From Nitrospirota bacterium (GTDB lineage Bacteria; JACPQY01), in assembly GCA_016180645.1 (NCBI GenBank), contig JACPAV010000030.1, positions 1 through 39,804 on the forward strand: DNA of 39,804 nt, read 5' to 3'. The position numbers and the translations under genes are program-made. A model generated the notes under the pieces. That model was not told the origin of the DNA, searched no databases, and saw nothing but the letters and a program-made list of their open reading frames with translations. This document shows, piece after piece, positions 8,407-35,918 of this stretch; the stretch's first letter is position 1; every line of letters starts with the position of its first letter.

Positions 8407-8510
8407 TGTCAGCGATCAGCCGTCAGCGATCGGCTTCAAAAGCGGGATTGGGAAGCAAGACGGAAGTTTTCTTCGAGGCTGAAAGCTGACCGCTGGAAGC
8501 TGAGAGCTGC
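8407..8510. repeat. Inverted pair of heptamer arrays with a short non-coding spacer, between convergent genes
   Basis: TGTCAGC GATCAGC CGTCAGC GATCGGC ... GCTGAAA GCTGACC GCTGGAA GCTGAGA. Confidence 0.85.
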
Positions 8511-8515
8511 TTTCC

Positions 8516-9133
8516 CTATTTCGCCAGATCGACGTCGTAGCCGGACACCCATCCGGTATTGCCCTTGGGGGTTTTCACCTTGAACCAGGGGCCGTTTTGG
8601 CCGACGACAACCATCTGCGTTCCCGAGGGAACATTCTTCAAAACCTTCCCATTCTTTTTGGGCAGGGCACGCATGGGGATGGAAGGCTTGTTGGGAACGA
8701 GAACCTTTGATCCGGCCGGTTTGGCCGCCTCGGCAGGCTTCGCGGTCTCCGCACCCGTGGATGCCTCGGGTTTCTGCTCCTCGGCAGCCGGGGCTGCCCC
8801 GTTTGACCGGCCGGCGCCGTTCCCGTTGGAGGCGGCCGCCGTGGGCGCAGATTCAGATTCTTTCCCGGCTTCTACGGGTTTGTCGCCGATCAGGTAGCCC
8901 GTCACCCAGCCTTCGGACCCTGCTTCGTCCTTCACCAAGAACCACTGTCCCACGCGCTTGGATGAGGTGACCGGCGTATTGCGGTCTACACGGGAGACGA
9001 CTTCATAGTAGTAGCTGGGCCCCTTTCGGAGTTCCGCGCGAACGGCCGTGACGAAGAATTTCTTATCCTGGGCGAGAGCGGGCGCACTGACCAAGAGGGT
9101 GAGTAAGAGGGCCAGGAAAGTCCGCATATTCAT
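8516..9133 (-). CDS. Secreted protein with two bacterial SH3 domains and an Ala/Pro/Glu-rich linker
   Basis: Signal peptide MRTFLALLLTLLVSAPALA; two repeats ending WFLVK...EGWVTGY and WFKVK...TGWVSGY. Confidence 0.85.
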   Translation of the reverse strand: MNMRTFLALLLTLLVSAPALAQDKKFFVTAVRAELRKGPSYYYEVVSRVDRNTPVTSSKRVGQWFLVKDEAGSEGWVTGYLIGDKPVEAGKESESAPTAAASNGNGAGRSNGAAPAAEEQKPEASTGAETAKPAEAAKPAGSKVLVPNKPSIPMRALPKKNGKVLKNVPSGTQMVVVGQNGPWFKVKTPKGNTGWVSGYDVDLAK

Positions 9134-9204
9134 GGCGGGGCGTATTCTACCGTCAGCCGCCCTGATTTGACAAGAGCTTGGGATTACCGGAGTCTGCCGC
9201 GGTG

Positions 9205-9264
9205 ACTCCACCCCCACCGGAATCTCAAATCTCAAGTTTCAAATCTCAAACGGGAGGCGGGGTG
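9205..9264 (+). repeat. Heptamer array in the loop of a GC hairpin covering the RBS and start of the MMPL gene
   Basis: ATCTCAA ATCTCAA GTTTCAA ATCTCAA (9222-9249), closed by ACTCCACCCCC / GGGAGGCGGGGT. Confidence 0.7.
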
Positions 9265-11553
9265 ACGTTTCTTGAACGCGCTGCCCGATTCCTAGTTCGG
9301 CGCCGGATACCCATTCTCATGGTGTGGGCGGCCATTACCGTTGCGGCCACCCTCGCTGCTCGTCGGCTTCAGTTCGATTTCAATTTCGTGAGCCTCTTCG
9401 AGTCGAACGATCCCTCGGTGGCGCGCTTCCAGGACTACCGGGAGCGCTTTGGGGACGATGCCTCCTATGTCGCCGCTATCATCCAAAGCGATCGGATCTT
9501 CACGCCACAGGTTCTCTCGGGGATTCAGACCTTGGGGGCGTCGTTCTCCCAGACTCGCGGCATCAAGCGGACGGTGCATCTCATGAATTTCAAGGTGCCG
9601 CAGCCGGTGCGGGACGGATTTGAAGTGCGCCCGTTGGTGAAGCGACCGCCCTCCACGCTCGATGCGGCGGAAGAGTTGAAAGAGAAAGCACTCGGGCACC
9701 CCTTGATGAACGGGGCCCTCGTGTCCCCCGATGGGACCACGGCGGCCGTCATCGCGGAGTTCGACGATGATGTTGAAAGTGTGGGCGAGCGGGAGGTGAT
9801 CCAGCGTGAGCTGGACCGGCGGGCGGGTGAAACCCTCTCCGGCCTCCCAGTGACTTTCTTCCTAACGGGCATTCCGGTCATTCAACAGCGATACAAAGAT
9901 CTCATCTTCAGCGAGCAGGTCCGGTTCGTGCCGGTGGCGGCCGCGATCCTTCTCCTCTTCGTCTACGCCTTCCTGCGCCGTCCGGCGTTCATTCCCATCG
10001 CCGTGGTTCCCGTTACCGTCTCGGTGGTCTGGACGCTGGGGATCATGGCTCTTTCCGGCCGCGGGGTGAACATCATGAACCAGGTGATTCCGGTGACCCT
10101 CATGGTGGTGGGCATCGCGGACGCCATCCATCTCCTTGTCCGCTACCAGGAGGAGCTGGTTTCGGGTCGCACCCAACAGGGCGCCATTCTGAAGACGGTG
10201 TCCACACTGGGCAAGGCGTGTTTCCTGACCAGCTTCACCACCGCCGTCGGCTTTTTCTCGCTCCTCAGCGCCCACGCGAAGGTGGTCCGGGAGCTCGGTT
10301 GGTACGCGGGACTGGGCGTCATGCTTGCCTACCTGAATACCATCGTCTTGGTGCCGATCCTGCTCACGTTTACCCAGTCGCCTGCCCCTTCCGCATCTCC
10401 GCGACCGGCGCCGGGCACTTCGGCGGATTCCCAGGGGAAGCTCTCCGCCCTGCTCGGAAGAATCGGGCACAGTGCCCTCACACATCCGCGAATCGTTTTT
10501 GTCTCGGTGGCGCTCCTCACGCTGACCGGGGCGCTCGCGGCGCTCCGGGCGGAATCGCACCATCGGATCCTGGAGGAGATCCTTCCCAGCGATCCGGTCT
10601 ATCGGGGAGTCATGGCATTGGAGGAGAAACTTAGCGGACTGCTCAGCTTCGCAGTGGTGGTGGATGGGGGTCATGAGGATGCCATCCTCGAACCCGGAGT
10701 CCTGCGGGCGCTTGAGGACGCTCAGCGTTTTCTGGAAGAGGCCGAGCCGGAGTTCATCAGCCGAACCCTGTCGGTGGCGGACGTGGTGCGCGAAATCCAC
10801 GGGCAGATGGCGGGAGATTCGGGATCGCTGCCGGCGGAGAAGAAACTGCTTTACCAGTATCTCCTGTTTCTGGATCGGGAGACGCTGGAGCCCTTTGTGG
10901 ACGAGGGATTCCGCCGTGCAGCGATCCGCGTCCGGGGAAAGGATCTCGGAAGTGAGCGTTGGCTCAAGTTGAAACCGGCGTTGGAGAAGCGCCTCACGGC
11001 CAATCTACCCAAGGGATACCGTGTATCCTTCACCGGAGCGTCGGATCTTGCCATTACGACGCTGACCTTCATTGTGCACGACATGCTCGTCAGTCTTTCC
11101 TGGTCCTTCGTCATGATCTTTGGGATTATCATCCTGCTTTTCCGGTCGGCACGGGTAGGACTCATCAGCATCCTGCCCAACATTCTCCCGCTCCTGACCA
11201 CCTTGGGGCTGATGGGCCTTGCCGGAGTTCCCATCCGAACTGCATCCGTCATCATCTTTACGGTTTCGCTGGGCATCGCGGTGGACAACACGATTCATTT
11301 CATCGCGCGGTACCACGAGGAGCGCGGGGGGGGGCTGGCGCCGCGAGAGGCGGCGGAAAAGTCGCTCCACACGTCCGGACGCGCCATGACGATCTCCACC
11401 CTGATGCTGGTGTCCGGCCTGGGCGTCTTCCTGTTTTCCAATTTCCGGGCCGTTCTGGAATTCGGGATTTTCGGGGGGTGGACGTTGCTGGTTGCGCTGG
11501 TCTTGGATCTGGTCGTCACGCCCGTCCTCTTCGTCGCGTTCGACCGTCGCTGA
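9262..11553 (+). CDS. MMPL/RND-superfamily transporter
   Basis: Two (TM + periplasmic loop + 5 TM) halves, GIADAIHL and GIAVDNTIHF motifs, LTSFTTAVGFFSL; GTG start after GGAGG. Confidence 0.92.
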   Translation: MTFLERAARFLVRRRIPILMVWAAITVAATLAARRLQFDFNFVSLFESNDPSVARFQDYRERFGDDASYVAAIIQSDRIFTPQVLSGIQTLGASFSQTRGIKRTVHLMNFKVPQPVRDGFEVRPLVKRPPSTLDAAEELKEKALGHPLMNGALVSPDGTTAAVIAEFDDDVESVGEREVIQRELDRRAGETLSGLPVTFFLTGIPVIQQRYKDLIFSEQVRFVPVAAAILLLFVYAFLRRPAFIPIAVVPVTVSVVWTLGIMALSGRGVNIMNQVIPVTLMVVGIADAIHLLVRYQEELVSGRTQQGAILKTVSTLGKACFLTSFTTAVGFFSLLSAHAKVVRELGWYAGLGVMLAYLNTIVLVPILLTFTQSPAPSASPRPAPGTSADSQGKLSALLGRIGHSALTHPRIVFVSVALLTLTGALAALRAESHHRILEEILPSDPVYRGVMALEEKLSGLLSFAVVVDGGHEDAILEPGVLRALEDAQRFLEEAEPEFISRTLSVADVVREIHGQMAGDSGSLPAEKKLLYQYLLFLDRETLEPFVDEGFRRAAIRVRGKDLGSERWLKLKPALEKRLTANLPKGYRVSFTGASDLAITTLTFIVHDMLVSLSWSFVMIFGIIILLFRSARVGLISILPNILPLLTTLGLMGLAGVPIRTASVIIFTVSLGIAVDNTIHFIARYHEERGGGLAPREAAEKSLHTSGRAMTISTLMLVSGLGVFLFSNFRAVLEFGIFGGWTLLVALVLDLVVTPVLFVAFDRR

Positions 11554-11770
11554 TCGTCTCAAGAGATCGGACTTTCGTGCCGATTATTTTCCGTACAGGT
11601 ACCATGTTGCTCAAGTCTCGGAATGGATGGGTCGAAAGATGCTTTCCGGCAACAGGGTACGCACGCCCCGCCTTCATGCGGGATTTCACTTTGAGAGCGG
11701 GGCTGCCGTGCCGCGTGGACGCCCGTAACCGCCCAGGCACTTCTTCGACTCGGCACTCGGAATAATCTGC

Positions 11771-13207: not shown

Positions 13208-13238
13208 GTGCTTCCCCCCATGTTCGCCAAGGTTCCGA

Positions 13239-13319: not shown

Positions 13320-13350
13320 GTCGATCGCAAGAAGACTTATGTCGGGTCCC

Positions 13351-13572: not shown

Positions 13573-13586
13573 GGCTTCTTCCTCCG

Positions 13587-15259: not shown

Positions 15260-17056
15260 ATGACCCGTCCGCGAAGTCTCGCCCCGATGGTGTTCATGCT
15301 CTTTGCCGTGGTGGGTCTGTCAGGCGCCGTCGAGTCGGCGGGCCTGCACTCTGTTTACTTCGATTATGGCAGTTCCGCGCTGTCCGCCGAGTCCCAGAAG
15401 ACGCTCGAACGTCATGCGGCGTGGCTCAAGGACCACGCGGAGGTGCTCCTGGAAGTTCAGGGATGGGACGACTTCTACGTGGGCAAGGGGGATGGGAGGC
15501 TTTCGGTGAAACGTGCGGAAGCCGTTAAGGAATTTTTGTCCAAGAAAGGGGTCGAACTGGATCGGATGACGATCAAGGATCGCGGAGCGGCGCCGTGGGA
15601 TCCCACCCGGAAGAGCGATCCTCGGACCTTCCGGAGGGTGGACTTTCTGGTGATTGGAAAAAGATCGCCGACGCGCAGTACTCCGGAAGCCTCCGAGCCG
15701 ATGGTGGAATCAGCCGCGCCTGCGTCGTCCACCGCCCCGCCCGTGGGAGCCGTGGAGCCGGTGCCGACCGAGAGCGCCCCGGTGAGGGAACCTGCCAAAA
15801 CGGAGATACCTGTGAAAGCTGAGCCCACCGCCGCTCCGGAGCAGGCCAGACCGGCGCCACCCGTCGAACCGCCTGTGAAGAAAGAAACACCGCCCGCCGC
15901 CGTGCCTCCGAAGGAAGCTAAATCGGTTGCCTCCGCCCCGGAAACCAAGCCTGTGCCACCCTCAGCCGAACCGGAGAAAGTGGTCGTTGCCGCGCCGGCG
16001 AAGGAAGAAAAATCACCGCCTGTCGCCACCGCGCCAGAACCCGCATCGGCAGCGGCCCCGCCTCGTGGGACCTCCGCCGCCGCGGTGCCCGAACCGGAAC
16101 CTCCCCGTGAGGAGAAGATCGAGCAAGCGTGGATGAAGTGGAAACCCTCGAATGTCGGCCCGAAGCCGCGCTGGGGTCACGGCATGGTCTTCGATGCGTC
16201 AAGCGGGCGCGTGGTTCTATTTGGTGGCACCAACGGGAAACTGGTTTTCGGGGATCTTTGGGAATTTGATCTCAAGAGCACACGCTGGTCCCCCGTTCAA
16301 CCCGGGGGGGGGGATCCGGGTCCGCTCGCGTACCACTCGGCGGTCTACGATTCACAGGCCAAACGCATGATCATCTTCGGCGGATCGAGCAACCTGCGCG
16401 ACACGACGGATTCGGTCTGGTCGCTGAGTCTGAAAAAGGGGGCGGAGTCCTGGGTGAAAATCGAATTCCCCGTGTCTCCCGGCCCGCGGGCCGCGCAGTC
16501 CACCGCGTATGATTCCCGCAGCCACCGGATGGTGATCTTTGGCGGATGCGCGAAGAATCTCAAGGCGTGCCTTTACTCCAATGACTTGTGGGAACTCGAC
16601 CTCAAGGTGGGCGCCGAAACGTGGTCGCCGTTGTCCGGCGTCAACTCACCTCCCGGTGAACGCGAAAGCGCCATGGCCTTCACGCAGGCCGACGGCAACC
16701 TGGTGGTCATCGGCGGGTTCAACGCCAAAGGATACCTGAGAGACGCGTGGATCTACGATCGGAAGAAGAAGGTGTGGAGTCCGATGGAAACGCCGCTCAG
16801 TGCGCGGTGCTGCGCGAGCTATCATGAGGCTGCGAAAGGATCGGTGTTGTTCGGAGGGAACGACCGGCGGGCGTTTTTTCAGGATACGTGGTGGTCGAAC
16901 GGGAAGGAGTTCAAGGAAATCCGCGAGCCCTCCATGCCGCAGGCGAGGGCCTTTTCGCGGCTGGTGCCCACGGGCGAGCCCAACATGTATTTCCTTTTTG
17001 GGGGTCAATCCCCCAGCGGCGCGATGGGCGATTTCTGGGTGTTGAAGCTGAAGTAG
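15260..17056 (+). CDS. Exported OmpA/Pal-like peptidoglycan-binding domain, Pro/Ala-rich linker and Kelch beta-propeller
   Basis: Signal peptide; VYFDYGSSAL...LSVKRAEAV...RRVDF; about six Kelch units (P-R-x-H...FGG...DLW). Confidence 0.85.
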   Translation: MTRPRSLAPMVFMLFAVVGLSGAVESAGLHSVYFDYGSSALSAESQKTLERHAAWLKDHAEVLLEVQGWDDFYVGKGDGRLSVKRAEAVKEFLSKKGVELDRMTIKDRGAAPWDPTRKSDPRTFRRVDFLVIGKRSPTRSTPEASEPMVESAAPASSTAPPVGAVEPVPTESAPVREPAKTEIPVKAEPTAAPEQARPAPPVEPPVKKETPPAAVPPKEAKSVASAPETKPVPPSAEPEKVVVAAPAKEEKSPPVATAPEPASAAAPPRGTSAAAVPEPEPPREEKIEQAWMKWKPSNVGPKPRWGHGMVFDASSGRVVLFGGTNGKLVFGDLWEFDLKSTRWSPVQPGGGDPGPLAYHSAVYDSQAKRMIIFGGSSNLRDTTDSVWSLSLKKGAESWVKIEFPVSPGPRAAQSTAYDSRSHRMVIFGGCAKNLKACLYSNDLWELDLKVGAETWSPLSGVNSPPGERESAMAFTQADGNLVVIGGFNAKGYLRDAWIYDRKKKVWSPMETPLSARCCASYHEAAKGSVLFGGNDRRAFFQDTWWSNGKEFKEIREPSMPQARAFSRLVPTGEPNMYFLFGGQSPSGAMGDFWVLKLK

Positions 17057-17057
17057 C

Positions 17058-17146
17058 GGTCAGCCGTCCGCTCTCAGCATTCAGCGGAACATGCAATCAG
17101 GGAACAGCCCGAAAAGCTGAGTGCCGATCGCGGATCGCTGAAAGCT
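17058..17146. repeat. Inverted pair of heptamer arrays between convergent genes (same family as 8407-8510)
   Basis: GGTCAGC CGTCCGC TCTCAGC ATTCAGC ... GCTGAGT GCCGATC GCGGATC GCTGAAA. Confidence 0.8.
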
Positions 17147-17149: not shown

Positions 17150-17740
17150 CTAGTAGAAGTAAAAACGGATGCCGAGCGACGAGTCGATGACGGATCTCGT
17201 TTCCTTGGCCAGACGGACGCCGGGTGCAGCCTCAACGAACAGTTCCAACGGATAGCGCCGCAACAGAAAATTGACGCCCAATGGGACACGGAGGAGAAGT
17301 CCCTCCAGATCCTTCACGCTCTTGTCGTTTCCCGTGCTGACATAGCTGAGACCGATTCCGGCATAGAGAGGAATGATATTCTTAAGGAGGGGGGCAATAT
17401 CGTGCGCGAGGTAGCTGCTTCGTACGATAATCATCTGGTCGCTGCCGCTGCTGTACCCCACATCGAAGGTGATGGCCTTGGTTTCGCGGAGCCAATATTT
17501 GAAAGTGACACCGGGTGGGACGCCCGTGGTTTGGCCGTAGATGCCCGCGCCTGCGGTGTGGTGGGCAAATCCATTCGTGGCGGTAGCATCCTCATCCTCC
17601 ACCGGGGAGGCGGCTGATGTGGCGGTCGGGGCGGGTTTGCCGGCCTGAGCCCAAGCGCCGGACGCGAACACCGCGGACAGGAAAAGGGCCGAAAGAGCCC
17701 TCACAAATAGAAGTGAATGCACACTACGAGTAACAGTCAT
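17150..17740 (-). CDS. Putative small outer-membrane beta-barrel protein
   Basis: Signal peptide ending AWA-Q, amphipathic strands (LYAGIGL, LLRVPLGVNF, LELFVEAAPG), C-terminal GIRFYFY. Confidence 0.7.
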   Translation of the reverse strand: MTVTRSVHSLLFVRALSALFLSAVFASGAWAQAGKPAPTATSAASPVEDEDATATNGFAHHTAGAGIYGQTTGVPPGVTFKYWLRETKAITFDVGYSSGSDQMIIVRSSYLAHDIAPLLKNIIPLYAGIGLSYVSTGNDKSVKDLEGLLLRVPLGVNFLLRRYPLELFVEAAPGVRLAKETRSVIDSSLGIRFYFY

Positions 17741-17889
17741 CTCGCCTCCATGGGCACACATTAAACGGGGTTTGCCCGAAATTGTCAAGCAGAAAAGAGA
17801 GATGTGGGAAAAGATTGACGGCTATGCTTGACGCGGGTGGGGGGGGGTGGTACGGGGACAAGGTATTCACCCAGATGAAGGAGGTCAAC

Positions 17890-24837: not shown

Positions 24838-25053
24838 TGGTTCCACGTGCTTGGGCGTCGGAGTCAGTACGGTATGAACTATGCGCACTACCGGCGTCTG
24901 TTGGAGGTCTTTCCCCTGCCTCGTCCCTACATTGCGCGCCCTTCTCGGTGGCTTACGCGTCAGCCGGGTGACCTGCTTGGAAGAGCCGGATGCCGGAAAT
25001 CGGCCCGTCCGGATCTGTGAGGGTGAAATCGGGCAACCGATGAACTACTCGAC
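24838..25053 (+). mobile_element. 3' remnant of a group II intron (maturase C-terminus, domains V and VI)
   Basis: In-frame WFHVLGRRSQYGMNYAHYRRLLEVFPLPRPYI...GRAGCRKSARPDL*. DV GAGCCGGATGCCGGAAATCGGCCCGTCCGGATC (24983-25015) with AGC triad and GAAA loop. DVI with bulged A, ending CTACTCGAC. Confidence 0.88.
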
Positions 25054-25758: not shown

Positions 25759-26499
25759 AGCAGCCTCGGGCTTGCCGAGTATGGAGTAAAGCTGCGCAGC
25801 GAGGGACTCACGGTTTTCTGAAAAGAGCCGAACCCGATGTCCGTTTGCGCCGGACGGATGCGGAAAGCCTGAGAGCCACCGTCCAGCGCGAACTCGGTTC
25901 TCCACGGCGAGAAGCTGAAGAACCTCCTCGACCGATCTTCCGAGTGGAACGAGCACCGCGTTCGGTATTGATTCCAGCTCACTAGCAAGTATCTCACGGG
26001 CGAAGTCCATCAGAAACGGGGACTGGCTTGGTCGCGGGTTCGTTCCAGTGTAGTTGCGCGTGCCGACGAAGACGGGATACCGGAAGGCGGACGTGGTATG
26101 AAGGAGCGAGCGCGCAACTCCGAAGAGATCCGAGGAGGACTGGATGCTGAGGAGCCGCGGTAGATCGAGCGCGTCGAGCATGCGGGTGAGGTTCACTCGC
26201 ATCGAGCCAGCAAAACTGGCGCGAAGTTTTGCATGCCGACAGGCATCCTCTTCCGGGTTGCCCGCAGCAAGGGCATCCCGAACGGTTCGGCACGCGATCT
26301 CCATTTGCGTCCAACCCGGCGTGATTCCGAGGATGATCACCTTCGCTTCGGGGTTCTCCGAGTCGAAGGGACAGTAGAAGACACGAAGAGCCCCTTCCTT
26401 CGCGATCTGCAAGGCAGGGACAAGGAGATCGGTGTGATCGTACCGTTCCCGGGATGGAAGCGATGCGAGGAACGGGCCATACCTCTCAAAGAGCGACAT
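25714..26499 (-). CDS. Integron cassette gene: uracil-DNA glycosylase superfamily-like protein
   Basis: 261 aa; PFD..N..AKVIILGITPG (motif A-like), LHTTS, LVPLG, GFPHPSGAN (motif B HPS). Cassette starts at GTTGGGC (26517-26511). Confidence 0.72.
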   Translation of the reverse strand: MSLFERYGPFLASLPSRERYDHTDLLVPALQIAKEGALRVFYCPFDSENPEAKVIILGITPGWTQMEIACRTVRDALAAGNPEEDACRHAKLRASFAGSMRVNLTRMLDALDLPRLLSIQSSSDLFGVARSLLHTTSAFRYPVFVGTRNYTGTNPRPSQSPFLMDFAREILASELESIPNAVLVPLGRSVEEVLQLLAVENRVRAGRWLSGFPHPSGANGHRVRLFSENRESLAAQLYSILGKPEAAAQQQHAADGASRRS

Positions 26500-26523
26500 G
26501 GTTCCCGGCTGCCCAACCACTGA

Positions 26524-26793
26524 TCAACTTGCCATTTTGCCCTGATAATTCAATATTGGAGTGGTTTTCGGGGTTCTTCGGTCTCCGATGGAGGGGATTC
26601 TCAGTCCTTTTCTGAGACGAACCAGAATCCAACCTTCCAAAACGTCTATGAGATTCCGGCGGCATTCTTCCAAGGAGCGACCGGTTGCCCACACTCCCTT
26701 CACGCCTCTGATCTCGCCGTAATAGGGATCGCGGCCACGAATGCGCTCATACCGCGCGCGTTTGAGGGCCGCTTCAACGTACTCGCCGATCAT
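26524..26793 (-). CDS. HicB-family antitoxin (orphan)
   Basis: MIGEYVEAALKRARYE...YYGEI.GVKGVWATGRSLEECRRNL.DVLEGWI. Confidence 0.82.
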   Translation of the reverse strand: MIGEYVEAALKRARYERIRGRDPYYGEIRGVKGVWATGRSLEECRRNLIDVLEGWILVRLRKGLRIPSIGDRRTPKTTPILNYQGKMAS

Positions 26794-26870
26794 GGCGCCC
26801 ATGCTATCACCTGTTTCTTCCCGTTTCACCCTCAGCCTGATAGCGAGTGTGGGCTAGGTGGAGGACGGGA

Positions 26871-26934
26871 TCACTTCCGCGGATGTGGGTGTCCTGCCCG
26901 AGGCACCCTGGATTCCCGCCTTCGCGGGAATGAC
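26871..26934. repeat. GTCATTCCCGCGAAGGCGGGAATCCAG-type palindrome with a degenerate inverted partner
   Basis: CTGGATTCCCGCCTTCGCGGGAATGAC at 26908-26934; decayed copy ATCACTTCCGCGGATGTGGGTGTCC just upstream. Confidence 0.7.
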
Positions 26935-27085
26935 ACTCTGAAGATGTCGCCCTGTTGTCCGGTGCCGGTGCCTGGCATGACTTCCTGACATTCCAGCAGG
27001 ATCTTCGATTTCCTCGGGCCCCCAACCGGAGTGGGATGATTCTCCACACGCACAGGAGGAGAAGCCTGCCAAGTACTCCTCACCC

Positions 27086-27614: not shown

Positions 27615-27824
27615 TAATAGTATATACTTGAATTAGGAGCAAATATCAACTGAACAGTTCGTACGGTGTTGCATCCGATGTGCTCTATTTTCCCATCAGT
27701 GGGGTCCCATCAGTGGGGGCATGGGACCTGACACTATTGCTCATGCCCGATCGTGGATAGGGACACCAGTGTCGCATCTCCGTTGACCCGGTCCTATTTG
27801 GGCGGCTGTACTTTTCTCGCGGCC

Positions 27825-28043
27825 ATGAAGATCCCGGTGCTGTTGGAGAAGAATGTCGAAGGCGGGTACACCGTGACTTGCCCGACACTCCCCGGTTGTA
27901 TCAGTGAGGGGGATACGCGTGCCGAGGCCCTGAAGAATATCCGCGAGGCGATGATCCTCTACCTTCGGGCCGTCGCGAAAGAGGAGCAACTGCTCCGCTT
28001 GGAAAAAGACTGCCGCGCTGAGATCGTCCAGATCGCGTTGTAG
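27825..28043 (+). CDS. HicB-family antitoxin
   Basis: EGGYTVTCPTLPGCISEGDTRAEALKNIREA. Confidence 0.9.
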   Translation: MKIPVLLEKNVEGGYTVTCPTLPGCISEGDTRAEALKNIREAMILYLRAVAKEEQLLRLEKDCRAEIVQIAL

Positions 28044-28052
28044 ACGCCGCGT

Positions 28053-28280
28053 TTGCCGCGGATACCCGGCAAGGAGGCCGTCCGCGTCCTCCCGCGCGCC
28101 GGATTCGAAGTTTTCGATCAGGAGGGGAGCCACGTTTACCTCCACAAGCGCGTGGGTGATTCCTTTGCGGGTCGAGTAACCATTCCCCTTCACGGCAAGA
28201 AAATTCTGAAACCGAAGACTCTCAAGTCGATTCTCCAGCAGGCAGGCTTGAAGGTGGAGGATTTCATCAGGTTCATGTAG
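28053..28280 (+). CDS. HicA-family toxin
   Basis: AGF...QEGSHVYL...VTIPLH...LKPKTLKSILQQAG. Start codon uncertain (TTG). Confidence 0.85.
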   Translation: MPRIPGKEAVRVLPRAGFEVFDQEGSHVYLHKRVGDSFAGRVTIPLHGKKILKPKTLKSILQQAGLKVEDFIRFM

Positions 28281-28336
28281 AGGCGCCGGAGTTGGGGGTT
28301 GGTGCGTCGGGGATTCGAACTGAGGCCGCGATGTGA

Positions 28337-28398
28337 CCCCCTCACCCGCACCCGCCACTGAATCGTCGGGCAGGCCCTCTCCCTTAGGGGGAGAGGGG
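28337..28398. repeat. CCCCTCACCC...CCCTCTCCC-N-GGGAGAGGG (BoxC-like) palindromic element
   Basis: CCCCTCACCC followed by the hairpin CCCTCTCCCTTAGGGGGAGAGGG, with an extra internal segment. Confidence 0.6.
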
Positions 28399-28577
28399 AA
28401 GGTTCTTTCCTCATCGACCTTCCCATGCTTGGAGGAATAGGACTTTGCCGGAAAAAGGGGCGGAAGGAATTGCCGGGGAGGGCGGAGGATTTGTTTCGAT
28501 TCGGATAAGTTGGCGCGGCGCGTCAAATTCGGGCAAAACGGCGTTGCGGCAGGGACTTAAACTTCAAGGGACTCGGC

Positions 28578-29418: not shown

Positions 29419-29446
29419 CGTGGCGCGTGACGCGTGACGCGGGGCG
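29419..29446 (+). repeat. Heptamer array at the flgF/flgG junction
   Basis: CGTGGCG CGTGACG CGTGACG CGGGGCG. Confidence 0.7.
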
Positions 29447-29461
29447 CGAAGGAGGGAGAAG

Positions 29462-30253: not shown

Positions 30254-30304
30254 ACGGGTAGGCGAGTAGCGGGCTAGACCCAAAAGAACAGGTGGAATGA
30301 GGCG

Positions 30305-31153
30305 ATGAAGGGGAAAGGCATTCAGGCGGACGGCGCCCAGCGAGCGCGAGCGACGGCCTCACTTGCCGAATCGGCGCCGCCCATCCATGGGACGGCGCTC
30401 GTAGCGGCAGGTGCCGCACCGTCCTGGCTGGCGGGGTGTGTCTTCATCCTGCTGCCGGTCCTCCTCTGGGGCGCCCCGGCGACGGCCTTGACGCCACCGC
30501 AACCGGCCTCCTCGACCAAGCAGGAGGCGATCAGCCCCATCCAGCGTCAGGCTGAGTCCTACATACTCTCGCAGGTTCCGGAGTTCATCCAGGTGGAGTC
30601 GATCGCATGGACGGGCGTCCGGATCCCCACCGATGTCGGAGAAGACGTTCAGATCCGAATCTCACCGGCAGCCCGGTTCACTTGGTTCGGGCCACAGAGA
30701 CTCCTCGCGGAATACCCGTCCACGAGCGGTCGCGTGAGAAAGCTGTGGCTGTCCTTCGAAGTCCGCGGCCAGGCGCGGGTCGCCTGCGCCGTGGAAGGTC
30801 TGGCGCGGGGCAAGGTGCTGAGCGATGCGAACACCCGGATCGTCGCGGTGCCACTGGCGGAGCTTCCACCGGACTACGTGACGGACGTATCGGCCCTGGT
30901 CGGCCGAAAGGCGCTGCGCCAATTCCGCGAGGGAGAAATTCTTTCTTCCCGGAGTTTCGAGCAGATTGCGGATATCCGACGGGGCGAAAAAGTAGGCGTG
31001 ATCCTCAGCCAGTCCCGCTTCACGGTTGAAACCGTGGGCGTGGCGCAGGAGGACGGCCGTGTGGGCGAGGTCATCTTCGTGAAGAATCCGGAGTCGGGCA
31101 AGACGTTTCTCGGGCGGATCTTGAGCGATCACCGGGTGGAGGTGACCCTTTGA
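30305..31153 (+). CDS. flgA: Flagellar P-ring assembly chaperone FlgA
   Basis: SAF-like C-terminus (LARGKVLS, IRRGEKV, GVAQEDGRVGEVIFVKNPESGK) and position. Start uncertain. Confidence 0.88.
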   Translation: MKGKGIQADGAQRARATASLAESAPPIHGTALVAAGAAPSWLAGCVFILLPVLLWGAPATALTPPQPASSTKQEAISPIQRQAESYILSQVPEFIQVESIAWTGVRIPTDVGEDVQIRISPAARFTWFGPQRLLAEYPSTSGRVRKLWLSFEVRGQARVACAVEGLARGKVLSDANTRIVAVPLAELPPDYVTDVSALVGRKALRQFREGEILSSRSFEQIADIRRGEKVGVILSQSRFTVETVGVAQEDGRVGEVIFVKNPESGKTFLGRILSDHRVEVTL

Positions 31154-31157
31154 AGAA

Positions 31158-31192
31158 ATTTGAGATTTCAAATCTGAGATTTGAGATCGAAA
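31158..31192 (+). repeat. Heptamer array at the flgA/flgH junction
   Basis: ATTTGAG ATTTCAA ATCTGAG ATTTGAG ATCGAAA. Confidence 0.8.
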
Positions 31193-31208
31193 ACGGGGAG
31201 GTGACACC

Positions 31209-31952
31209 ATGATGGAAGAGGAAGAACCCCTTACGCCGTGGGGAAGAAAGACCGTGATGGATCGCGGCATGTTCGCCGCGGGATCGATCCTCGTGACGAT
31301 GGCAACGGTGATGCTGGGCTTCGTCTTGTTCGCCGGCTGCGCAACGCCGAGGAAGGATATCGGGACCGACGTCAGTTCCAAGATCGCCCAACAGGTGGCG
31401 GTGCTGAACCGGCCGCACTACGAGGGATCGTTGTGGACCGAAGGCAGCTCCGCCGGATTCTTCACCGATGTGAAGGCGCGGGTGGTAGGCGACATCGTGA
31501 CCGTGCAGGTGACGGAGAGTTCGCATGCCAAGAAGCGCGCCGGCATGAAGTTGGACCGCGAGGGCGGGATCAGCGGCCAGATCGAGGGCAAGGATGCGGT
31601 GATCCCGATCAAAAGTGCGAAGGGCTCCCTCAAGATGGGAAGCGATTTGAACTCGACCGGAGAAACCCTGCGAAGCGACGACGTGGTGGCGAGCGTGACG
31701 GCGTTCGTCACGGAGGTCATGCCGAACGGCAATCTGCGGATTGAAGGTCGGAAAGACGTTCGTGTCGACAGCGAGAACCAGTTTATCTACGTGGCGGGCA
31801 TTATTCGTCCGACGGACATCACGCAATATAACATCGTGACGTCCACGGCCCTGGCGGACGCCAAAATTGAGTACAGCGGTGAAGGCGCGCTGTCCGACGC
31901 CTCGCGTCGGGGGTGGCTCAAGCGCGCCCTGGATTTCGTTTGGCCGCTGTGA
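31209..31952 (+). CDS. flgH: Flagellar L-ring lipoprotein FlgH
   Basis: Lipobox FAGC, GSLW, KARVVGDIVTV, VMPNGNLRIEG, GIIRPTDI, ADAKIEYSG. Confidence 0.93.
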   Translation: MMEEEEPLTPWGRKTVMDRGMFAAGSILVTMATVMLGFVLFAGCATPRKDIGTDVSSKIAQQVAVLNRPHYEGSLWTEGSSAGFFTDVKARVVGDIVTVQVTESSHAKKRAGMKLDREGGISGQIEGKDAVIPIKSAKGSLKMGSDLNSTGETLRSDDVVASVTAFVTEVMPNGNLRIEGRKDVRVDSENQFIYVAGIIRPTDITQYNIVTSTALADAKIEYSGEGALSDASRRGWLKRALDFVWPL

Positions 31953-32058
31953 ATCGTGATGAGTGATGAGTGACGTGTGATGAGTAGGACCATGGAAGAC
32001 CGGAAAGAGGTTTTGTCCGAGGCTCCTGTCGCTTCACTACTCACCGTTCACTCTTCAC
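31949..32058. repeat. Inverted pair of heptamer arrays after flgH
   Basis: GTGAATC GTGATGA GTGATGA GTGACGT GTGATGA ... GCTTCAC TACTCAC CGTTCAC TCTTCAC. Confidence 0.85.
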
Positions 32059-32717
32059 GAGAAGAAAGCCCCCTTGCGTCGGGTCCCCCCCACCCGGCGC
32101 TACCTCCATTGAGCGGGCCCCCACGGATGGGGGCCCGCTTTGCTCCTTCGGTGAACCCGATTCCCGAGGGTCGTCCTTTTCGGCGACCTAGGGAAGGGTC
32201 GGGGCGCCGTAGGGGTGCCGGCCACCTCCTCTCTTCCCATGCGCCTTTGCCGGCCGTGGGAACAACTCTCCACCCCGATGCTCCGTCGGGGCGGTTTCCA
32301 TCAGACCTTGGCCGTTTCCCTCGAAGCTCCGGCAGCCACTCCAGCTCGCCGGAGGCTTCACTCCTTGTGGCCACGGGCCCTCGGGAACCAAGGATGGTTT
32401 CCCGGAAAGTTTCGGGATTCCCGAGGGCTCTCCTTGCCCCGCTCTTTTCCAGGATTTCCCACTTGGGATCTCGGATCTCAAGTTTCCTGGCGGACGCGGA
32501 CCTTGCCTCCCCACAAGGAAACGGCGCGCTCGCGGAGCGAGCTTCGGGGTCCGCCCTGGAGTGGGCGGACCACTCAGATCGATTGTCCCTCGGCGACGCC
32601 CACGCGGCGTTCCGCGGGAATCGCCTGAGCATCCTTCCGAGGCTTGCACACGCTTTCGCGTCAACGGGGATCGACCGCGACCACGGTTTGCAGGCCCTTC
32701 CCGGGCTTGTGAAGAGG

Positions 32718-33827
32718 ATGTGGTATCTCTTTGCCTGTTTTTTGTCTCTGGCTTTGTGGGCCGGGATGGTATTCCCCATCCCGGCCCGAGCCGAGCGGGT
32801 AAAGGATTTGGTGGACATCGCGGGGGTTCGGAACAACCAGCTCATCGGCTACGGCCTCGCGGTGGGTTTGGAGGGGACGGGGGATTCCTTCTTCCGATCG
32901 AATTTCACACAGCAAAGTCTGGCGAATTTCTTGAAGAAGCTCGGCATCCTTCTGGACGAGCGCACGATCCGCGGGCTGCGGCTTCGGAACAGCGCCGCCG
33001 TGATGGTGGTGGCCACGCTCCCGCCGTTTGCCCGGCAGGGATCGCGCATCGATGCGATTGTCTCCTCGGTGGGCGACGCGGGCGGCCTTCAGGGCGGTAC
33101 CTTGCTTATGACGCCTCTCAAGGGCCCGGACGGCCGTGTGTATGCCGTGGCCCAGGGGCCGGTCTCCGTCGGGGGGTTTCGCCCCGGAAAGGTCCCGGTT
33201 CGGGGGGAGAGAAACTACTCGACCACCGGCCGCATCTCCGGCGGGGCCATCATTGAAAAAGAAGTCATTGTCGATTTGGAACAGAAAGAGCAATTGACGC
33301 TCGTTTTGATCAATCCGGATTTCACGACTTCGTCCCGCATCGCTCAGGCCGTCAACGCCGGCCTAGGAGGCGACGTGGCGAAACCGATCGATGCGACGGC
33401 GGTGGCCGTGAATATCCCGGACGATTTCCGGGGCAACGTGGTGGATATGGTGACCGCCATCGAGGCCCTTGAGGTGGACGAAGGCGTGCGGGCGCGGATC
33501 GTTCTCGACGAGCGGACGGGAACGGTGGTCATGGGCGAGAATCTTCGGCTCAAGTCCGTGGCCATTTCCCATGGGGACCTTCATATCGCCATCAAGGAGG
33601 AGCCGGAACCTTTGCCGCTCTCTCCCAACGAGAGTATAATCGTGCCCCAGGATATGAGTGAAGATGGCTCCAGGAAGGAGCAAGTCTTGTTGCTACCGCC
33701 GGGTCCCACGTTGGGGGAAATCGTCAAGGCGCTCAACACCGTGGGGGTCACCCCGCGGGATCTGATCGCCATCCTCAACACCCTTCGCGCGGCCGGCGCC
33801 CTCAACGCCCAGATTGATTTGATGTGA
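32718..33827 (+). CDS. flgI: Flagellar P-ring protein FlgI
   Basis: Signal peptide, then ERVKDL..IAGVRNNQLIGYGLAVGLEGTGD, AAVMVVATLPPF, GGTLLMTPL, ERTGTVVMG, PRDLIAIL. The frame is open back to 31977. Confidence 0.93.
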   Translation: MWYLFACFLSLALWAGMVFPIPARAERVKDLVDIAGVRNNQLIGYGLAVGLEGTGDSFFRSNFTQQSLANFLKKLGILLDERTIRGLRLRNSAAVMVVATLPPFARQGSRIDAIVSSVGDAGGLQGGTLLMTPLKGPDGRVYAVAQGPVSVGGFRPGKVPVRGERNYSTTGRISGGAIIEKEVIVDLEQKEQLTLVLINPDFTTSSRIAQAVNAGLGGDVAKPIDATAVAVNIPDDFRGNVVDMVTAIEALEVDEGVRARIVLDERTGTVVMGENLRLKSVAISHGDLHIAIKEEPEPLPLSPNESIIVPQDMSEDGSRKEQVLLLPPGPTLGEIVKALNTVGVTPRDLIAILNTLRAAGALNAQIDLM

Positions 33828-33829
33828 AG

Positions 33830-33896
33830 CCTCGCTGCCCCTGGAGGATTTCAGATTTGAGATTTGAAATTTCAGATTTGGCCGAAGGCGGTGGGG
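33830..33896 (+). repeat. Heptamer array in the loop of a hairpin covering the flgJ initiation region
   Basis: ATTTCAG ATTTGAG ATTTGAA ATTTCAG (33848-33875), closed by CCTCGCTGCC / GGCGGTGGGG; ATG at 33898. Confidence 0.78.
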
Positions 33897-33897
33897 A

Positions 33898-34758
33898 ATG
33901 AAGATCGATCCCCAGACAAGTCTGACGCTCCTGGGTGAAAAACTTAAAGGCGAATCTCAGAATTCGAGCCTTCAGGGCCTTCAGCGGCTCAAGAACGGGC
34001 TTTCCCCCCCGGGCCCCGGAGACCAACCCCCCGTCGATCCGGCTCAAGCCCGCAAAGCCGCGGAAAACTTCGAGTCGTATTTTCTGTTTTACGTTCTCAA
34101 GGGAATGCGCGAGGCGTTTACCGACGGCGATCCCCTCCTCGAAGGCGAGGATGGCGGCGGGTTTCAGGGCAGTGTTTTCAAAGAGATGATGGACGAAGAG
34201 TTGGGAAAAACGATGGCGCAGAACGGCGGAGTCGGCCTCGCCGACATGGTTCTCAAACAGCTCGGCGTCCCCTCGGACCGAAATCTTGTTTCGCCGTCGC
34301 GCGCCGGCGCAACCGTCGTACGCTCTCCCTCTTCGGCCACCGGGTTGCAGAAGGAGAATCGAGAAGGCTTGCGGCTGAATCGGCCCGTGCCCGGCGCGAT
34401 CACGTCGTCCTTCGGCACGCGCGCCGATCCGTTCACGGGGCGGGCGGAAAAGCACGAGGGCGTGGACCTCCGCGCGTCGGAAGGTGATGACGTGCGTTCC
34501 GCTGCCGCGGGAATCGTTGTCTTCAGCGGTGAGAAGCCGGGATACGGCCGCGTGGTGGAAGTCCTGCACGCGGACGGCTACAGCACGATTTATGCGCATC
34601 TAAAACAGCCGCTCGTTGAGCGGGGTGATTTCATTTCACGTGGCGGACTGGTCGGTCGGGCCGGGGAGACCGGTCGGGCGACGGGTCCCCACGTACATCT
34701 TGAGCTGAAGAAGGACGGGGAGCCGATCAATCCGGAGCCCTATCTTTTGGAAGCCTGA
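33898..34758 (+). CDS. flgJ: FlgJ-like rod-binding domain fused to an M23 peptidase
   Basis: AAENFESYFL..VLKGMR...GGVGLADMVLKQL, then HEGVD, YAHL, TGPHVHLE. Confidence 0.85.
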   Translation: MKIDPQTSLTLLGEKLKGESQNSSLQGLQRLKNGLSPPGPGDQPPVDPAQARKAAENFESYFLFYVLKGMREAFTDGDPLLEGEDGGGFQGSVFKEMMDEELGKTMAQNGGVGLADMVLKQLGVPSDRNLVSPSRAGATVVRSPSSATGLQKENREGLRLNRPVPGAITSSFGTRADPFTGRAEKHEGVDLRASEGDDVRSAAAGIVVFSGEKPGYGRVVEVLHADGYSTIYAHLKQPLVERGDFISRGGLVGRAGETGRATGPHVHLELKKDGEPINPEPYLLEA

Positions 34759-34877
34759 ACATATTGTAACAGCCGTGGATACTGGACGACCTGGCCAATC
34801 GGAAGAGGGATTTCCTTGCAGGGAATGTTTGTTTCCGGTTCAAACCTTCACAAAGTGCCGAAACTTACAAAACCTGT

Positions 34878-34904
34878 TAAAGTTCATGGATATCCTTCCG
34901 ATAG
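34878..34904 (+). promoter_or_regulatory. Sigma28 (FliA) promoter for flgM-flgN-flgK-flgL
   Basis: TAAA-N15-TCCGATAG versus consensus TAAA-N15-GCCGATAA. Confidence 0.78.
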
Positions 34905-34935
34905 ACTAGACTGAGGAGAAAGGAGAAAAGGCCAA

Positions 34936-35250
34936 ATGTCGCCCAGAATCACCGGAATCGGCTCCAAGCAAGTTGAGCAGCTCGTTTCGAACAAGGTTCA
35001 GAAGCGGGATGACCGGGTAAAAGCCGACAAGACCGAAACGCGCACCACCGAGGCGGGTGAGCGTGTTTCCCTTTCCGAAGCGGCCCGAGAGGTCGCCGCG
35101 GCAAGGAGCAGGGTCGAGCTGATCCCGGACGTCCGCACGGAACGAGTCGAGCAACTGAAGGACGCGATTTCCAATGGCACATACCAGGTGGATGGACGGG
35201 CAGTGGCCGAGAAGCTCCTCAAGGAAACTCTGCTCGACATCCTCTTGTAG
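34936..35250 (+). CDS. flgM: Anti-sigma28 factor FlgM
   Basis: ERVSLS, PDVRTERVEQLKDAISNGTYQVD...VAEKL. Confidence 0.92.
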   Translation: MSPRITGIGSKQVEQLVSNKVQKRDDRVKADKTETRTTEAGERVSLSEAAREVAAARSRVELIPDVRTERVEQLKDAISNGTYQVDGRAVAEKLLKETLLDILL

Positions 35251-35309
35251 TCCCGGCTCCGCCGTCCGGCGGAAGATTCGGGGGGACCGCGAATTCCAAG
35301 GAGGGAAGT

Positions 35310-35816
35310 ATGGCCGGTGCACCTCTGCCTCGTTCCGACTTCTTTAACGAACTCACCACCGCTCTTTCGCGTCAATGCGAAGCGCTGGACGCGCTGAAGC
35401 AGAAATTGGAGAACCAGAAGGAGCAGTTGATCCGCTTCCAGGTGGATGACCTGGAACAGAGCAACGCCGAGATCGCCGAACTCACCGCCCGCGTAGCCAC
35501 TCTTGAAAAGGACCGGTACGTGTTCGTCGCCCGGAAGTTCGGCCGTTCAGAGATGAAGCTTTCCGAGATTGTGGACGTGGCCCCCGTGGAACACGGGGCC
35601 CGCCTCCGGGAGATCCACGCCCGCTTGCGCTCCCTCTCGCGTGCCGTGGGCCGCTTGAGCACGGCGAATGCCGATCTCATGAGGAACGGCGCCGGTCTCG
35701 TGGAGGGGATGCTCAACTTGTACCGTCACTCGCTCAACGCCCGGCCGGTGTATGAGCGGGAGCGGATCGTCGATACGGTGGGACTCCAGGGCTCGATGGT
35801 GAGCACGAGGCTGTGA
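35310..35816 (+). CDS. flgN: Flagellar export chaperone FlgN
   Basis: Helical 168 aa protein between flgM and flgK. Confidence 0.75.
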   Translation: MAGAPLPRSDFFNELTTALSRQCEALDALKQKLENQKEQLIRFQVDDLEQSNAEIAELTARVATLEKDRYVFVARKFGRSEMKLSEIVDVAPVEHGARLREIHARLRSLSRAVGRLSTANADLMRNGAGLVEGMLNLYRHSLNARPVYERERIVDTVGLQGSMVSTRL

Positions 35817-35918
35817 GTCGTGAAGAGTGAAGGGTGATGGGTGAAGTGAAACTCCGAAGGGCAGAGAGAATTCGACCCATGAATTCATTCTCATCACCCC
35901 TCACACATAACGCATCAC
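35813..35918. repeat. Inverted pair of heptamer arrays at the flgN/flgK junction
   Basis: GTGAGTC GTGAAGA GTGAAGG GTGATGG ... TCATCAC CCCTCAC ACATAAC GCATCAC. Confidence 0.82.

Follow-up and report, generated by a model that had tools for sequence, protein, structure and literature searches.

Inverted heptamer elements in the window

The window, that is, the whole 39,804-nt stretch of DNA analysed here, comes from a groundwater bacterium and contains four elements (E1–E4) in which two arms of tandem heptamers flank a spacer in opposite orientation (Table 1). The four elements had been reported by the sequence-only reading, and they were confirmed by sequence, by folding and by an excess over controls. 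As a count of the arrays, four is far too low, since the window also holds at least five solitary arrays. E1–E4 start 0–7 nt from the upstream stop codon. In E3 and E4, which are situated between co-directional flagellar genes, the first GTGA unit itself contains this stop codon. The spacers (30–47 nt) contain no PF05635 open reading frame and, unlike the arms, have no match elsewhere in the genome.

Table 1. Positions of inverted elements, solitary arrays and the gene-bearing unit in the window.
Feature	Position	Strand	Parts and neighbours	Upstream stop codon
Gene-bearing unit	630–1051	+	Left arm (AATGGAG/AATTGAC...) 630–661, overlapping the hsdS end; PF05635 gene 659–1018; right arm (GTCCATT × 4) 1024–1051, immediately before hsdR	
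E1, TCAGC-family inverted element	8401–8513	+	Left arm 8407–8434 (4 × NNTCAGC); spacer 8435–8477; right arm 8478–8509 (4.5 × GCTGANN); outer stem from 8399–8406; convergent neighbours: acyl-CoA dehydrogenase gene 7156–8400, SH3-domain gene 8516–9235 (minus strand)	TGA 8398–8400
Solitary array AATCTCA × 4.3	9221–9250	.	GATTTGA family (C40 cassette unit)	
E2, TCAGC-family inverted element	17057–17146	+	Left arm 17058–17085; spacer 17086–17115; right arm 17116–17146; behind OmpA/Kelch gene 15260–17056, convergent with gene 17150–17788 (minus strand)	TAG 17054–17056
Solitary array CGTGRCG × 4	29419–29448	+	In the 61-nt spacer preceding the next flagellar rod gene	
Solitary GATTTGA-family array	31156–31187	+	flgA–flgH gap	
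E3, GTGA-family inverted element	31949–32058	+	Left arm 31949–31983 (5 × GTGANNN); spacer 31984–32030; right arm 32031–32058 (4 × NNNTCAC); behind flgH	TGA 31950–31952
Solitary GATTTGA-family array	33847–33880	+	Behind flgI	
E4, GTGA-family inverted element	35813–35918	+	Left arm 35813–35847; spacer 35848–35890; right arm 35891–35918; fills the flgN–flgK spacer	TGA 35814–35816
Solitary array CTCACGN × 3.9	38123–38149	+	flgK–flgL gap	

The decamer CTGAAGTAGC had been noted in front of both TCAGC elements. This is true of E1 and E2, but the decamer was rejected as a family signature: it occurs seven times in the genome, and only the two copies in the window precede arrays. In E2, the decamer largely consists of the last codons of the host gene and is kept in the relative G001.

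E1–E4 all fold as long interrupted hairpins with energies of -59, -43.1, -47.8 and -43.7 kcal/mol and z-scores of -6.7, -4.1, -3.8 and -4.7, respectively, and for each element none of 200 shuffles was as stable. The E1 fold differs between the two strands (-59 vs -40 kcal/mol), which made G-U strand asymmetry a promising sign of an RNA role. Across 27 elements, however, the sense RNA is the more stable in 11 and the antisense RNA in 12; as the sense folds are not more stable, the G-U signature that would mark an RNA role is absent, and this sign was discarded. No match to the simple consensus of intrinsic (Rho-independent) terminators (a short G+C-rich stem, a 3–8-nt loop and a T run) spans any of E1–E4. 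No Rfam family matches E1–E4 at its gathering score, and the E3 left arm gives only a chance-level C/D-box match (E-value 0.2).

Genome-wide population of heptamer arrays

E1–E4 are embedded in a large population of arrays. In the whole genome, TRF finds 356 period-7 arrays of at least three copies, as opposed to 75 with period 6 and 76 with period 8; the corresponding counts in a copy of the genome generated by a third-order Markov model are 14 (period 7), 17 (period 6) and 14 (period 8). The period-7 excess over the adjacent periods and over a control, proposed as a check by the sequence-only reading, is thus present. Period 7 also predominates in 454 kb of unrelated metagenome loci (15 arrays, vs 4 of period 6 and none of period 8), which served as a background for repeat periods and comprise 76 loci found by FlgI, all at most 50% identical and without close relatives.

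After merging, 361 period-7 arrays remain, 61 of them with a reverse-complement partner at most 300 nt away (score of at least 12). Direct partners number 21, and the reverse-only and complement-only controls gave 2 and 3. Most of the merged arrays are solitary, and a hairpin is therefore not obligatory. A strict catalogue lists about 51 inverted array pairs; it recovered only E1 among E1–E4, so this number is a lower bound. Among 47 inverted elements outside long ORFs, 31 have a stop codon within 15 nt and nine abut a start codon. Other arrays run in frame within large ORFs. Arrays of the TCAGC family number 52 and its inverted elements about 20, and many copies of the GTGA family carry a purine-rich, RBS-like tract 3' of the left arm.

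Phased cores and free positions

The kept feature of the units is a core of 4–5 nt (TCAGC or GTGA) in a strict 7-nt phase, while the other two or three positions are free. The core is oppositely oriented on either side of a unique 30–50-nt spacer, right behind a stop codon. In 45 TCAGC arrays, 14 within-array mismatches fall on the five core positions and 117 on the two variable positions (chi-square p 9e-49), and 93 GTGA arrays have the same kind of bias (p 3e-21). The earlier argument that units would become alike under slippage alone holds, as the variation is confined to fixed unit positions in both sets of arrays.

Covariation of the arms, a check called for at the outset, is absent: the complementarity of the arms at the free positions is no greater than that of arms swapped between different elements. 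Remnants of a gene were also lacking. When a profile of 33 PF05635 proteins was searched against six-frame translations of 54 gene-less elements, the lowest E-value was 1.6 and random intergenic sequences scored as well as the elements or better, in a search whose power is low at spacer lengths of 14–120 nt. The proposal that the elements are deleted derivatives consequently found no PF05635 remnant in its favour. Because neither arm covariation nor gene remnants were found, the conserved item is the phased 4–5-nt motif, not a base-paired stem. Conservation of a phased motif without that of a paired stem points to recognition unit by unit.

Heptamer arrays around PF05635 genes

All five PF05635 genes of the genome (four-helix-bundle, rRNA-IVS protein; above the Pfam cut-off) are bracketed by inverted short-period arrays. 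The exact units of two of these cassettes are also common outside them. Among 125 units of free arrays, GATTTGA ranks first (29 free arrays) and GGTTCCT ranks fifth (10), whereas random genomic heptamers have a mean of 0.41 arrays, with a probability of 0.0075 for nine or more. Exact units were used for this comparison, as sharing at one mismatch is too permissive; at one mismatch only the C40 unit exceeds random heptamers (p 0.012; other units 0.10–0.89). Of 351 free arrays, just 90 differ by no more than one mismatch from the unit of some resident cassette. No copy of the TCAGC family bears a gene in this assembly (97% complete), and none of the four cassettes of G001 belongs to the family. 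The units of resident cassettes also occur in free arrays of the genomes G001, G012 and G036.

The association extends to other genomes. Small samples of 57–80 kb per genome contain 45 heptamer arrays in 1.03 Mb from 15 PF05635-positive genomes and eight in 1.17 Mb from 15 PF05635-negative genomes (one-sided MWU p 0.006), the latter having been chosen for few contigs and having a mean G+C of 0.43 vs 0.52. The contrast persists at a G+C of at least 0.44, with 40 arrays in 0.81 Mb vs two in 0.56 Mb. Period-6 arrays in the same samples number 14 and 19, respectively. An inverted partner (score of at least 12) accompanies 11 of the 45 arrays and none of the eight, and the arrays of the negative genomes are mostly A/T low-complexity. 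In whole genomes, (GTGANNN)3GTGA or (TCAGCNN)3TCAGC is found in 10 of 24 PF05635-positive and 1 of 36 PF05635-negative genomes (Fisher p 0.0002). An association of arrays with PF05635 genes, of the kind that the sequence-only reading had proposed to look for, is seen in both sampled DNA and whole genomes.

Arrays lie on both sides of 22 of the 29 PF05635 genes inspected in other genomes, and in 15 of 18 cassettes the upstream unit is near the reverse complement of the downstream unit. The similarity of the PF05635 proteins predicts that of the arm units weakly (Spearman -0.17, 406 non-independent pairs). The inverted arms of all five cassettes, the common units and the cross-genome concentration indicate that the gene-less elements go together with the four-helix-bundle unit, as had been suspected.

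Turnover at the same junctions in relatives

G001, the sole same-family genome in the collection compared, carries a gene-less element at the junction of E2 and another at that of E3, each of the same family as its counterpart with other units and another spacer (GTGAGCC/GGCTCAC at the E3 junction). The E4 site of G001 holds other heptamers (GAGAATC and CTGCCGA), and a relative in run X8 (about 84% identical) has a 38-nt GATTTGA-type array there instead. A gene between the arms, which relatives had been expected to reveal, was seen neither in G001 at any of the four sites nor in run X8 at the E4 site. Arrays are concentrated in PF05635-bearing genomes and turn over between relatives. The C40 and C18 cassette sites gave best matches of 48% and 40% identity in G001, with no downstream gene in common. 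The X8 joints at 31155/31182 and 33846/33878 were considered as a rearrangement and rejected, as they come from two look-alike GATTTGA arrays.

Comparison with known repeats

The features of SSR/STRR-type convergent heptamer pairs are all found in E1–E4, namely cored 7-nt units in arrays of about 3–6, inverted pairs and an intergenic location no more than about 50 bp from a stop codon or overlapping it. In Xanthomonas, Rehm et al. 2015 (PMC4692102) describe (GGGANTN)n arrays, mostly of about four units, that lie within 50 bp of a stop codon or overlap it and form 70–75 convergent pairs with possible stem-loops; the Nostoc repeats are GGGGA(C/T)T. A conserved core, free positions and a location between co-directional genes are common to these repeats and to the elements described here. 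The present units (TCAGCNN and GTGANNN) lack the G3 tract of the G-quadruplex heptamers of that class, and the G-quadruplex reading is therefore inapplicable. The elements also occur in another phylum, and a link to PF05635 is absent from the passages of PMC4692102 consulted.

The heptamers of the cyanobacterial STRRs (short tandemly repeated repetitive sequences) of PMC2670836 can form hairpins, one example being between hupS and hupL; transcript stability, translational coupling or termination have been proposed as roles of the STRRs, their function being unknown according to that source. Tandem 7-bp units, a capacity to form hairpins and a location between genes or near 3' ends are shared. 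The unit sequences differ, and the present elements have two arms around a 30–50-nt unique spacer and a measured absence of arm covariation. TAACTGA direct repeats, reported in PMC4679880 from marine Beggiatoaceae, cyanobacteria and some Bacteroidetes with a patchy phylogenetic spread, resemble the present arrays in being intergenic, in abutting gene boundaries with 2–6 heptamer units and in having a unit with stop codons. They consist of one unit only, nearly always placed immediately upstream of a start codon, with only one inverted case reported.

A gene-bearing parallel is the intervening sequence (IVS) in the 23S rRNA of Coxiella burnetii, in which, according to PMC4990558, inverted termini form an almost perfect 28-bp stem with a PF05635-family ORF (S23p) in the loop. 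The 5' arm contains two to three tandem GACAGAT units, depending on the strain, and RNase III cuts the stem at the first heptamer repeat. Like a PF05635/IVS-type cassette, E1–E4 have inverted short-period arms with one unit family on both sides. Unlike the Coxiella IVS, they lack an ORF, lie outside rRNA and have stems interrupted every 7 nt. This paper was the only one found in print that links PF05635 to heptamers (subscription journals being outside the coverage); the link beyond the Coxiella IVS was thus not found in print, while convergent heptamer pairs near stop codons are already known.

Origin of the elements

With somewhat better than even confidence, E1–E4 are assigned as gene-less members of a genome-wide heptamer-array population of the same kind as the arrays around every PF05635 (Avd-like) gene. 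The points against this assignment include the TCAGC family, for which neither this assembly nor G001 shows a cassette, and the three-quarters of the free arrays that remain unmatched to a resident cassette unit.

The unmatched arrays would be expected if the arrays were ordinary simple-sequence repeats, with slippage favouring 7-nt units (proposed by Mrazek, according to the summary in PMC4679880), chance inverted pairs kept as 3' hairpins and PF05635 cassettes preferring, or surviving best in, such hairpins as landing sites. The predominance of period 7 in unrelated metagenome loci, the solitary state of most arrays and their in-frame presence inside large ORFs also fit this account, and a landing-site model would likewise yield common units and a cross-genome association. 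However, slippage followed by decay would distribute mismatches evenly, whereas they are observed at two or three positions only, and hairpin selection would leave pairing at the variable positions, where none is found beyond that of swapped arms. The scarcity of arrays in PF05635-negative genomes is a further point against simple repeats, which are an unlikely explanation overall.

Much less probable is an origin by deletion, in which each gene-less element is a former full cassette minus its PF05635 gene. The architecture and the placement behind stop codons agree with those of cassettes, and the RBS-like tracts behind the left arm of many GTGA-family copies would suit a lost gene. Against this stand the fruitless, low-power PF05635 profile search, the uniqueness of the E1–E4 spacers in the genome and the gene-less state of the E2 and E3 junctions in G001.

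REP/REPIN elements are many-copy short palindromes at 3' gene ends, often inverted doublets, that are mobilised by RAYT transposases. A REP/REPIN identity is highly improbable for E1–E4, although the elements lie at 3' gene ends and the first unit has GTAGC in front of it in E1, in E2 and its G001 copy, and at C31:35972. Most of the about 20 TCAGC-family copies have no GTAG head, and the reading was rejected for the family as a whole. GTAGCNNTCAGC is present 16 times, on both strands, and the TAG in E2 is the stop codon of the host gene. The arms consist of phased degenerate units and are not near-identical copies, stem pairing is unconserved at the variable positions, and the spacers are unique. 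MITEs were rejected for E1–E4, whose unique spacers provide no conserved internal sequence common to copies.

As members of the array population that surrounds PF05635 genes, E1–E4 would be non-autonomous partners of the cassettes, not deletion products of them. The broader interpretation offered by the sequence-only reading was hence upheld for the kinship with the PF05635 unit and for the slippage point, and not for deletion, covariation or a gene at the junctions. The units may be made or kept one by one through a multimeric nucleic-acid binder that recognises the phased core. The pentameric PF05635 protein suggests itself as the candidate for this role, a prediction that is possible, if short of probable. 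In the transcript, the inverted arrays would close into an interrupted hairpin at the upstream cistron's 3' end. By analogy with the RNase III-cut stem of the Coxiella IVS, such a hairpin could quite plausibly, at a little under an even chance, serve as a signal for processing or stability.

Among the long simple repeats of many bacteria, those of heptanucleotides show the strongest over-representation, and we know of no accepted cause. The PF05635 'intervening-sequence proteins' form a very large family that is, to our knowledge, without a known function. A more speculative and rather doubtful extension is that PF05635 genes and heptamer arrays constitute one two-part system across bacterial phyla, with autonomous cassettes and non-autonomous gene-less arrays and hairpins such as E1–E4. 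Writing or rewriting in blocks of phased cores with free positions would produce the arrays, which would be born degenerate, not grown by slippage. If true, such a system would explain the long-noted heptanucleotide excess and provide the 'IVS protein' family, now 30 years old, with a substrate. In the present genome, arrays and PF05635 genes exist side by side, a modest cross-genome test connects the two, and the two negatives, no covariation and no gene remnants, narrow the models. Because the elements occupy operon junctions and even lengthen reading frames, they affect gene calling and intergenic comparison.

Architecture of the four gene-less elements

The window forms the entire 39.8-kb contig C42 of the Nitrospirota genome G000 (4.72 Mb, 60.8% G+C, 65 contigs). 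As described in the sequence-only reading, it contains four elements with inverted heptamer arms behind stop codons (E1–E4). E1 and E2 are built from 4 × NNTCAGC, a unique spacer (43 and 30 nt, respectively) and 4–4.5 × GCTGANN, and E3 and E4 from 5 × GTGANNN, a spacer (47 and 43 nt, respectively) and 4 × NNNTCAC. Each element starts 0–7 nt past the stop codon of a Pfam-identified gene, and in E3 and E4 the first GTGA unit includes the TGA stop of the host gene. All four form long interrupted hairpins (z-scores −3.8 to −6.7) that none of 200 shuffles equals in stability. Their spacers have no match anywhere else in the genome, and comparison with the terminator consensus and Rfam yielded no fitting consensus or family. 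The decamer CTGAAGTAGC, previously proposed as a shared feature preceding E1 and E2, was rejected as a family feature on its genome-wide occurrences.

Features of the window and of other G000 contigs (window positions unless a contig is named)
Feature	Position	Strand	Description
PF05635 cassette	630-1051		PF05635 gene (E-value 9e-26) between hsdS and hsdR; arms AATGGAG.../...GTCCATT
E1	8401-8513		Upstream gene: acyl-CoA dehydrogenase
E2	17057-17146		Upstream gene: OmpA/Kelch protein
Group II intron domain V/VI (Rfam RF00029)	24981-25053	+	52 bits (gathering score 40)
High-depth stretch	26338-27004		Contig depth 10 to 100 times neighbouring bins in 4/4 runs
Perfect 2 × 14-nt repeat	27691-27718		Self-complementary unit TCCCATCAGTGGGG; upstream of 27741-28526 (minus strand)
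E3	31949-32058		Upstream gene: FlgH
Non-coding block	32060-32525		Between E3 and the true flgI start
E4	35813-35918		Upstream gene: FlgN
GTGA-family hairpins with CGGGGTTTCAC	C31:98279-98369, C31:289790-289866, C54:33873-33962, C3:190941-191138, others		Motif at inner edge of right arm
TCAGC-family elements with long spacers	C11:32046-32199, C48:47563-47737		Similar inner sequence, nested palindromes
In-frame arrays	C10:46200-51650, C47:5440-6900, C51:15660-16290		Different heptamer arrays in large repetitive ORFs, ~100-600 nt spacing

Genome-wide distribution and sequence constraints

TRF detected 356 period-7 arrays of at least three copies in the whole genome versus 75 with period 6 and 76 with period 8, and a third-order Markov copy of the genome contained 14, 17 and 14, respectively; the period-7 excess that had been set as a check is thus present. 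A reverse-complement partner within 300 nt (score ≥12) accompanies 61 of 361 merged arrays, compared with 2–3 in controls and 21 with direct partners. An inverted-element catalogue (score ≥11, ≤200 nt) lists 51 elements, an undercount in that it recovers only E1 among E1–E4. Forty-seven of these lie outside long ORFs, with a stop codon within 15 nt in 31 and an adjoining start in nine. By location, 125 of the 356 arrays are intergenic, 27 are partly intergenic and 204 fall within called ORFs, the gene calls being rough with over-extended starts; some arrays are truly in frame within large repetitive ORFs, and those of C10, C47 and C51 look as if they mark module linkers. Solitary arrays occur at five further window junctions, four of them within the flagellar cluster.

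Two families dominate, with TCAGC cores (52 arrays, about 20 inverted elements) and GTGA cores (102 arrays of period 7 and 42 of period 8). In both, variation is restricted to fixed unit positions. Comparing units within each of 45 TCAGC arrays (153 units) gives 14 mismatches over the five core positions and 117 over the two free ones (chi-square p 9e-49), and the corresponding test on 93 GTGA arrays gave p 3e-21. The covariation between arms that was to be examined is absent. In 20 TCAGC-family elements, free positions are Watson-Crick complementary between arms at 35 of 150 sites (chance 25%). Arm complementarity is 0.418 in the TCAGC family versus 0.474 ± 0.036 with arms swapped between elements, and 0.582 versus 0.593 ± 0.026 in the GTGA family. 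Since swapped arms are equally or more complementary, neither arm is an inverted duplicate of the other, and pairing is not selected beyond the core. RNA folds display no sense-strand bias (11 versus 12 of 27 elements). The non-periodic motif CGGGGTTTCAC, found in many GTGA-family hairpins, is absent from E3 and E4. The two TCAGC-family elements on C11 and C48 look like composite elements.

Relation to PF05635 cassettes

The genome contains seven matches to PF05635, the four-helix-bundle family of rRNA-IVS proteins, five of them above the Pfam cut-off. Inverted short-period arrays bracket all five and neither of the two weak matches, with arms of GGTTCCT, GATTTGA, GTGA-type, AATGGAC and a CATG-based 8-mer. 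In the window, the left arm (630-661) overlaps the final hsdS codons and its first units are translated as ...FNGELTKDNE*; the array therefore provides the tail and stop of hsdS. Among PF05635 genes from the sampled other genomes and the same-family relative G001, TRF arrays flank 22 of the 29 inspected on both sides. Of 34 cassettes, a total that includes the five of G000, 18 are flanked on both sides by period-7 arrays, and in 15 of these 18 the upstream unit differs by at most two mismatches from the reverse-complemented downstream unit. In the neighbouring cassettes L096 and L098 (G001:C79), 21–23 upstream AGTGAGC/AGTGAAC units face just 3–8 downstream. At L125 (G041:C278), the PF05635 gene is 5'-truncated, the upstream DNA reads like a reverse-transcriptase/maturase ORF, and the downstream arm is TNAGCNC x6.

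The proposed link between gene-less elements and the four-helix-bundle unit stands in part. In its favour, besides the bracketing, the exact cassette units GATTTGA and GGTTCCT form 29 and 10 free arrays outside cassettes (ranks 1 and 5 of 125 units), against a mean of 0.41 for random genomic heptamers. Other counts speak against a strict cognate rule: exact free copies of the C43 and C42 cassette units number 0–1, only 90 of the 351 free arrays come within one mismatch of a cassette unit, and no cassette in G000 or among the four of G001 belongs to the TCAGC family of E1 and E2. Nor did a profile of 33 PF05635 proteins find a remnant in 54 gene-less elements, which leaves their proposed origin as deleted derivatives unsupported.

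Other genomes and equivalent junctions

Sixty other genomes from 60 different families comprise 24 with and 36 without PF05635. In 57–80 kb from each of 15 genomes per group, the genomes with the gene yielded 45 period-7 arrays in 1.03 Mb and those without it 8 in 1.17 Mb (one-sided Mann-Whitney p 0.006), the samples being small and the latter genomes chosen for few contigs and lower in G+C; the contrast remains at G+C ≥0.44. Array number in the sampled DNA also follows PF05635 copy number (Spearman 0.45), so the anticipated association is observed. Period 6 does not differ (14 versus 19) and period 8 leans the same way as period 7 (15 versus 5). Inverted partners (score ≥12) accompany 11 of 45 arrays versus 0 of 8, and arrays of genomes lacking the gene are largely A/T low-complexity. 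Over whole genomes, the pattern (GTGANNN)3GTGA is present in 7/24 with versus 1/36 without PF05635, (TCAGCNN)3TCAGC in 5/24 versus 0/36, and either pattern in 10/24 versus 1/36 (Fisher p 0.0002).

G001 is the sole other genome of the same 'phylum' in the collection (FlgH identity 70%). Its E2 junction carries a TCAGC-family inverted element with different free positions and spacer, its E3 junction a GTGAGCC/GGCTCAC element, and its E4 junction the unrelated units GAGAATC and CTGCCGA, of which CTGCCGA is also the unit of one of the G001 cassettes. Its E1 junction lacks heptamers, and none of the flagellar cluster's solitary arrays is present. In a relative from run X8, ~84% identical over flgN (89 differences/540 nt), the whole flgN–flgK spacer including E4 is replaced by a 38 nt GATTTGA-type array. 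The four-helix-bundle gene expected between the arms was seen at none of these junctions (four sites in G001; E4 in X8).

Interpretation and known systems

Most likely, E1–E4 are the gene-less part of a population of heptamer-array elements associated with PF05635 cassettes. What is conserved is a core motif in fixed phase rather than the pairing of a stem. Turnover of the arrays is fast, yet their free positions are already degenerate, so neither an old decaying palindrome nor plain slippage fits. The main rival, which is possible, is that slippage makes the repeats, selection acts on the hairpins and cassettes land in them. The misfit of the simpler models therefore favours a multimeric binder that recognises or writes the arrays unit by unit. 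A candidate binder would be a PF05635 pentamer: PF05635 proteins are Avd-like (PMC10053308), and PMC4990558 cites one that forms a homopentameric toroid. Also favoured, by analogy, is a role at the RNA level, where the elements may act as interrupted 3' hairpins, because RNase III cleaves the Coxiella IVS within its heptamer-bearing stem (PMC4990558).

E1–E4 are of a kind already in print, from a little-sampled lineage. Xanthomonas convergent heptamer pairs similarly have a conserved core and about four units at or over stop codons (PMC4692102), cyanobacterial STRR likewise form heptamer hairpins between genes (PMC2670836), and Coxiella has heptamers in an arm of its PF05635-bearing IVS (PMC4990558). 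A search of literature outside subscription journals found no paper that ties PF05635 to genome-wide heptamer arrays. The absent arm covariation, the position-specific variability and the cross-genome association with PF05635 are added here.

Other features of the window

The non-coding block downstream of E3 is more conserved than neighbouring genes, with 16 differences/462 nt from a run X5 contig, compared with 99/970 nt for flgI. Its first ~90 nt are nearly identical in G001, and at its start a GC-rich hairpin precedes TTT. The block has no Rfam family match and may represent a leader or a structured RNA. The depth at 26338-27004 points to a stretch that is multicopy or shared widely.
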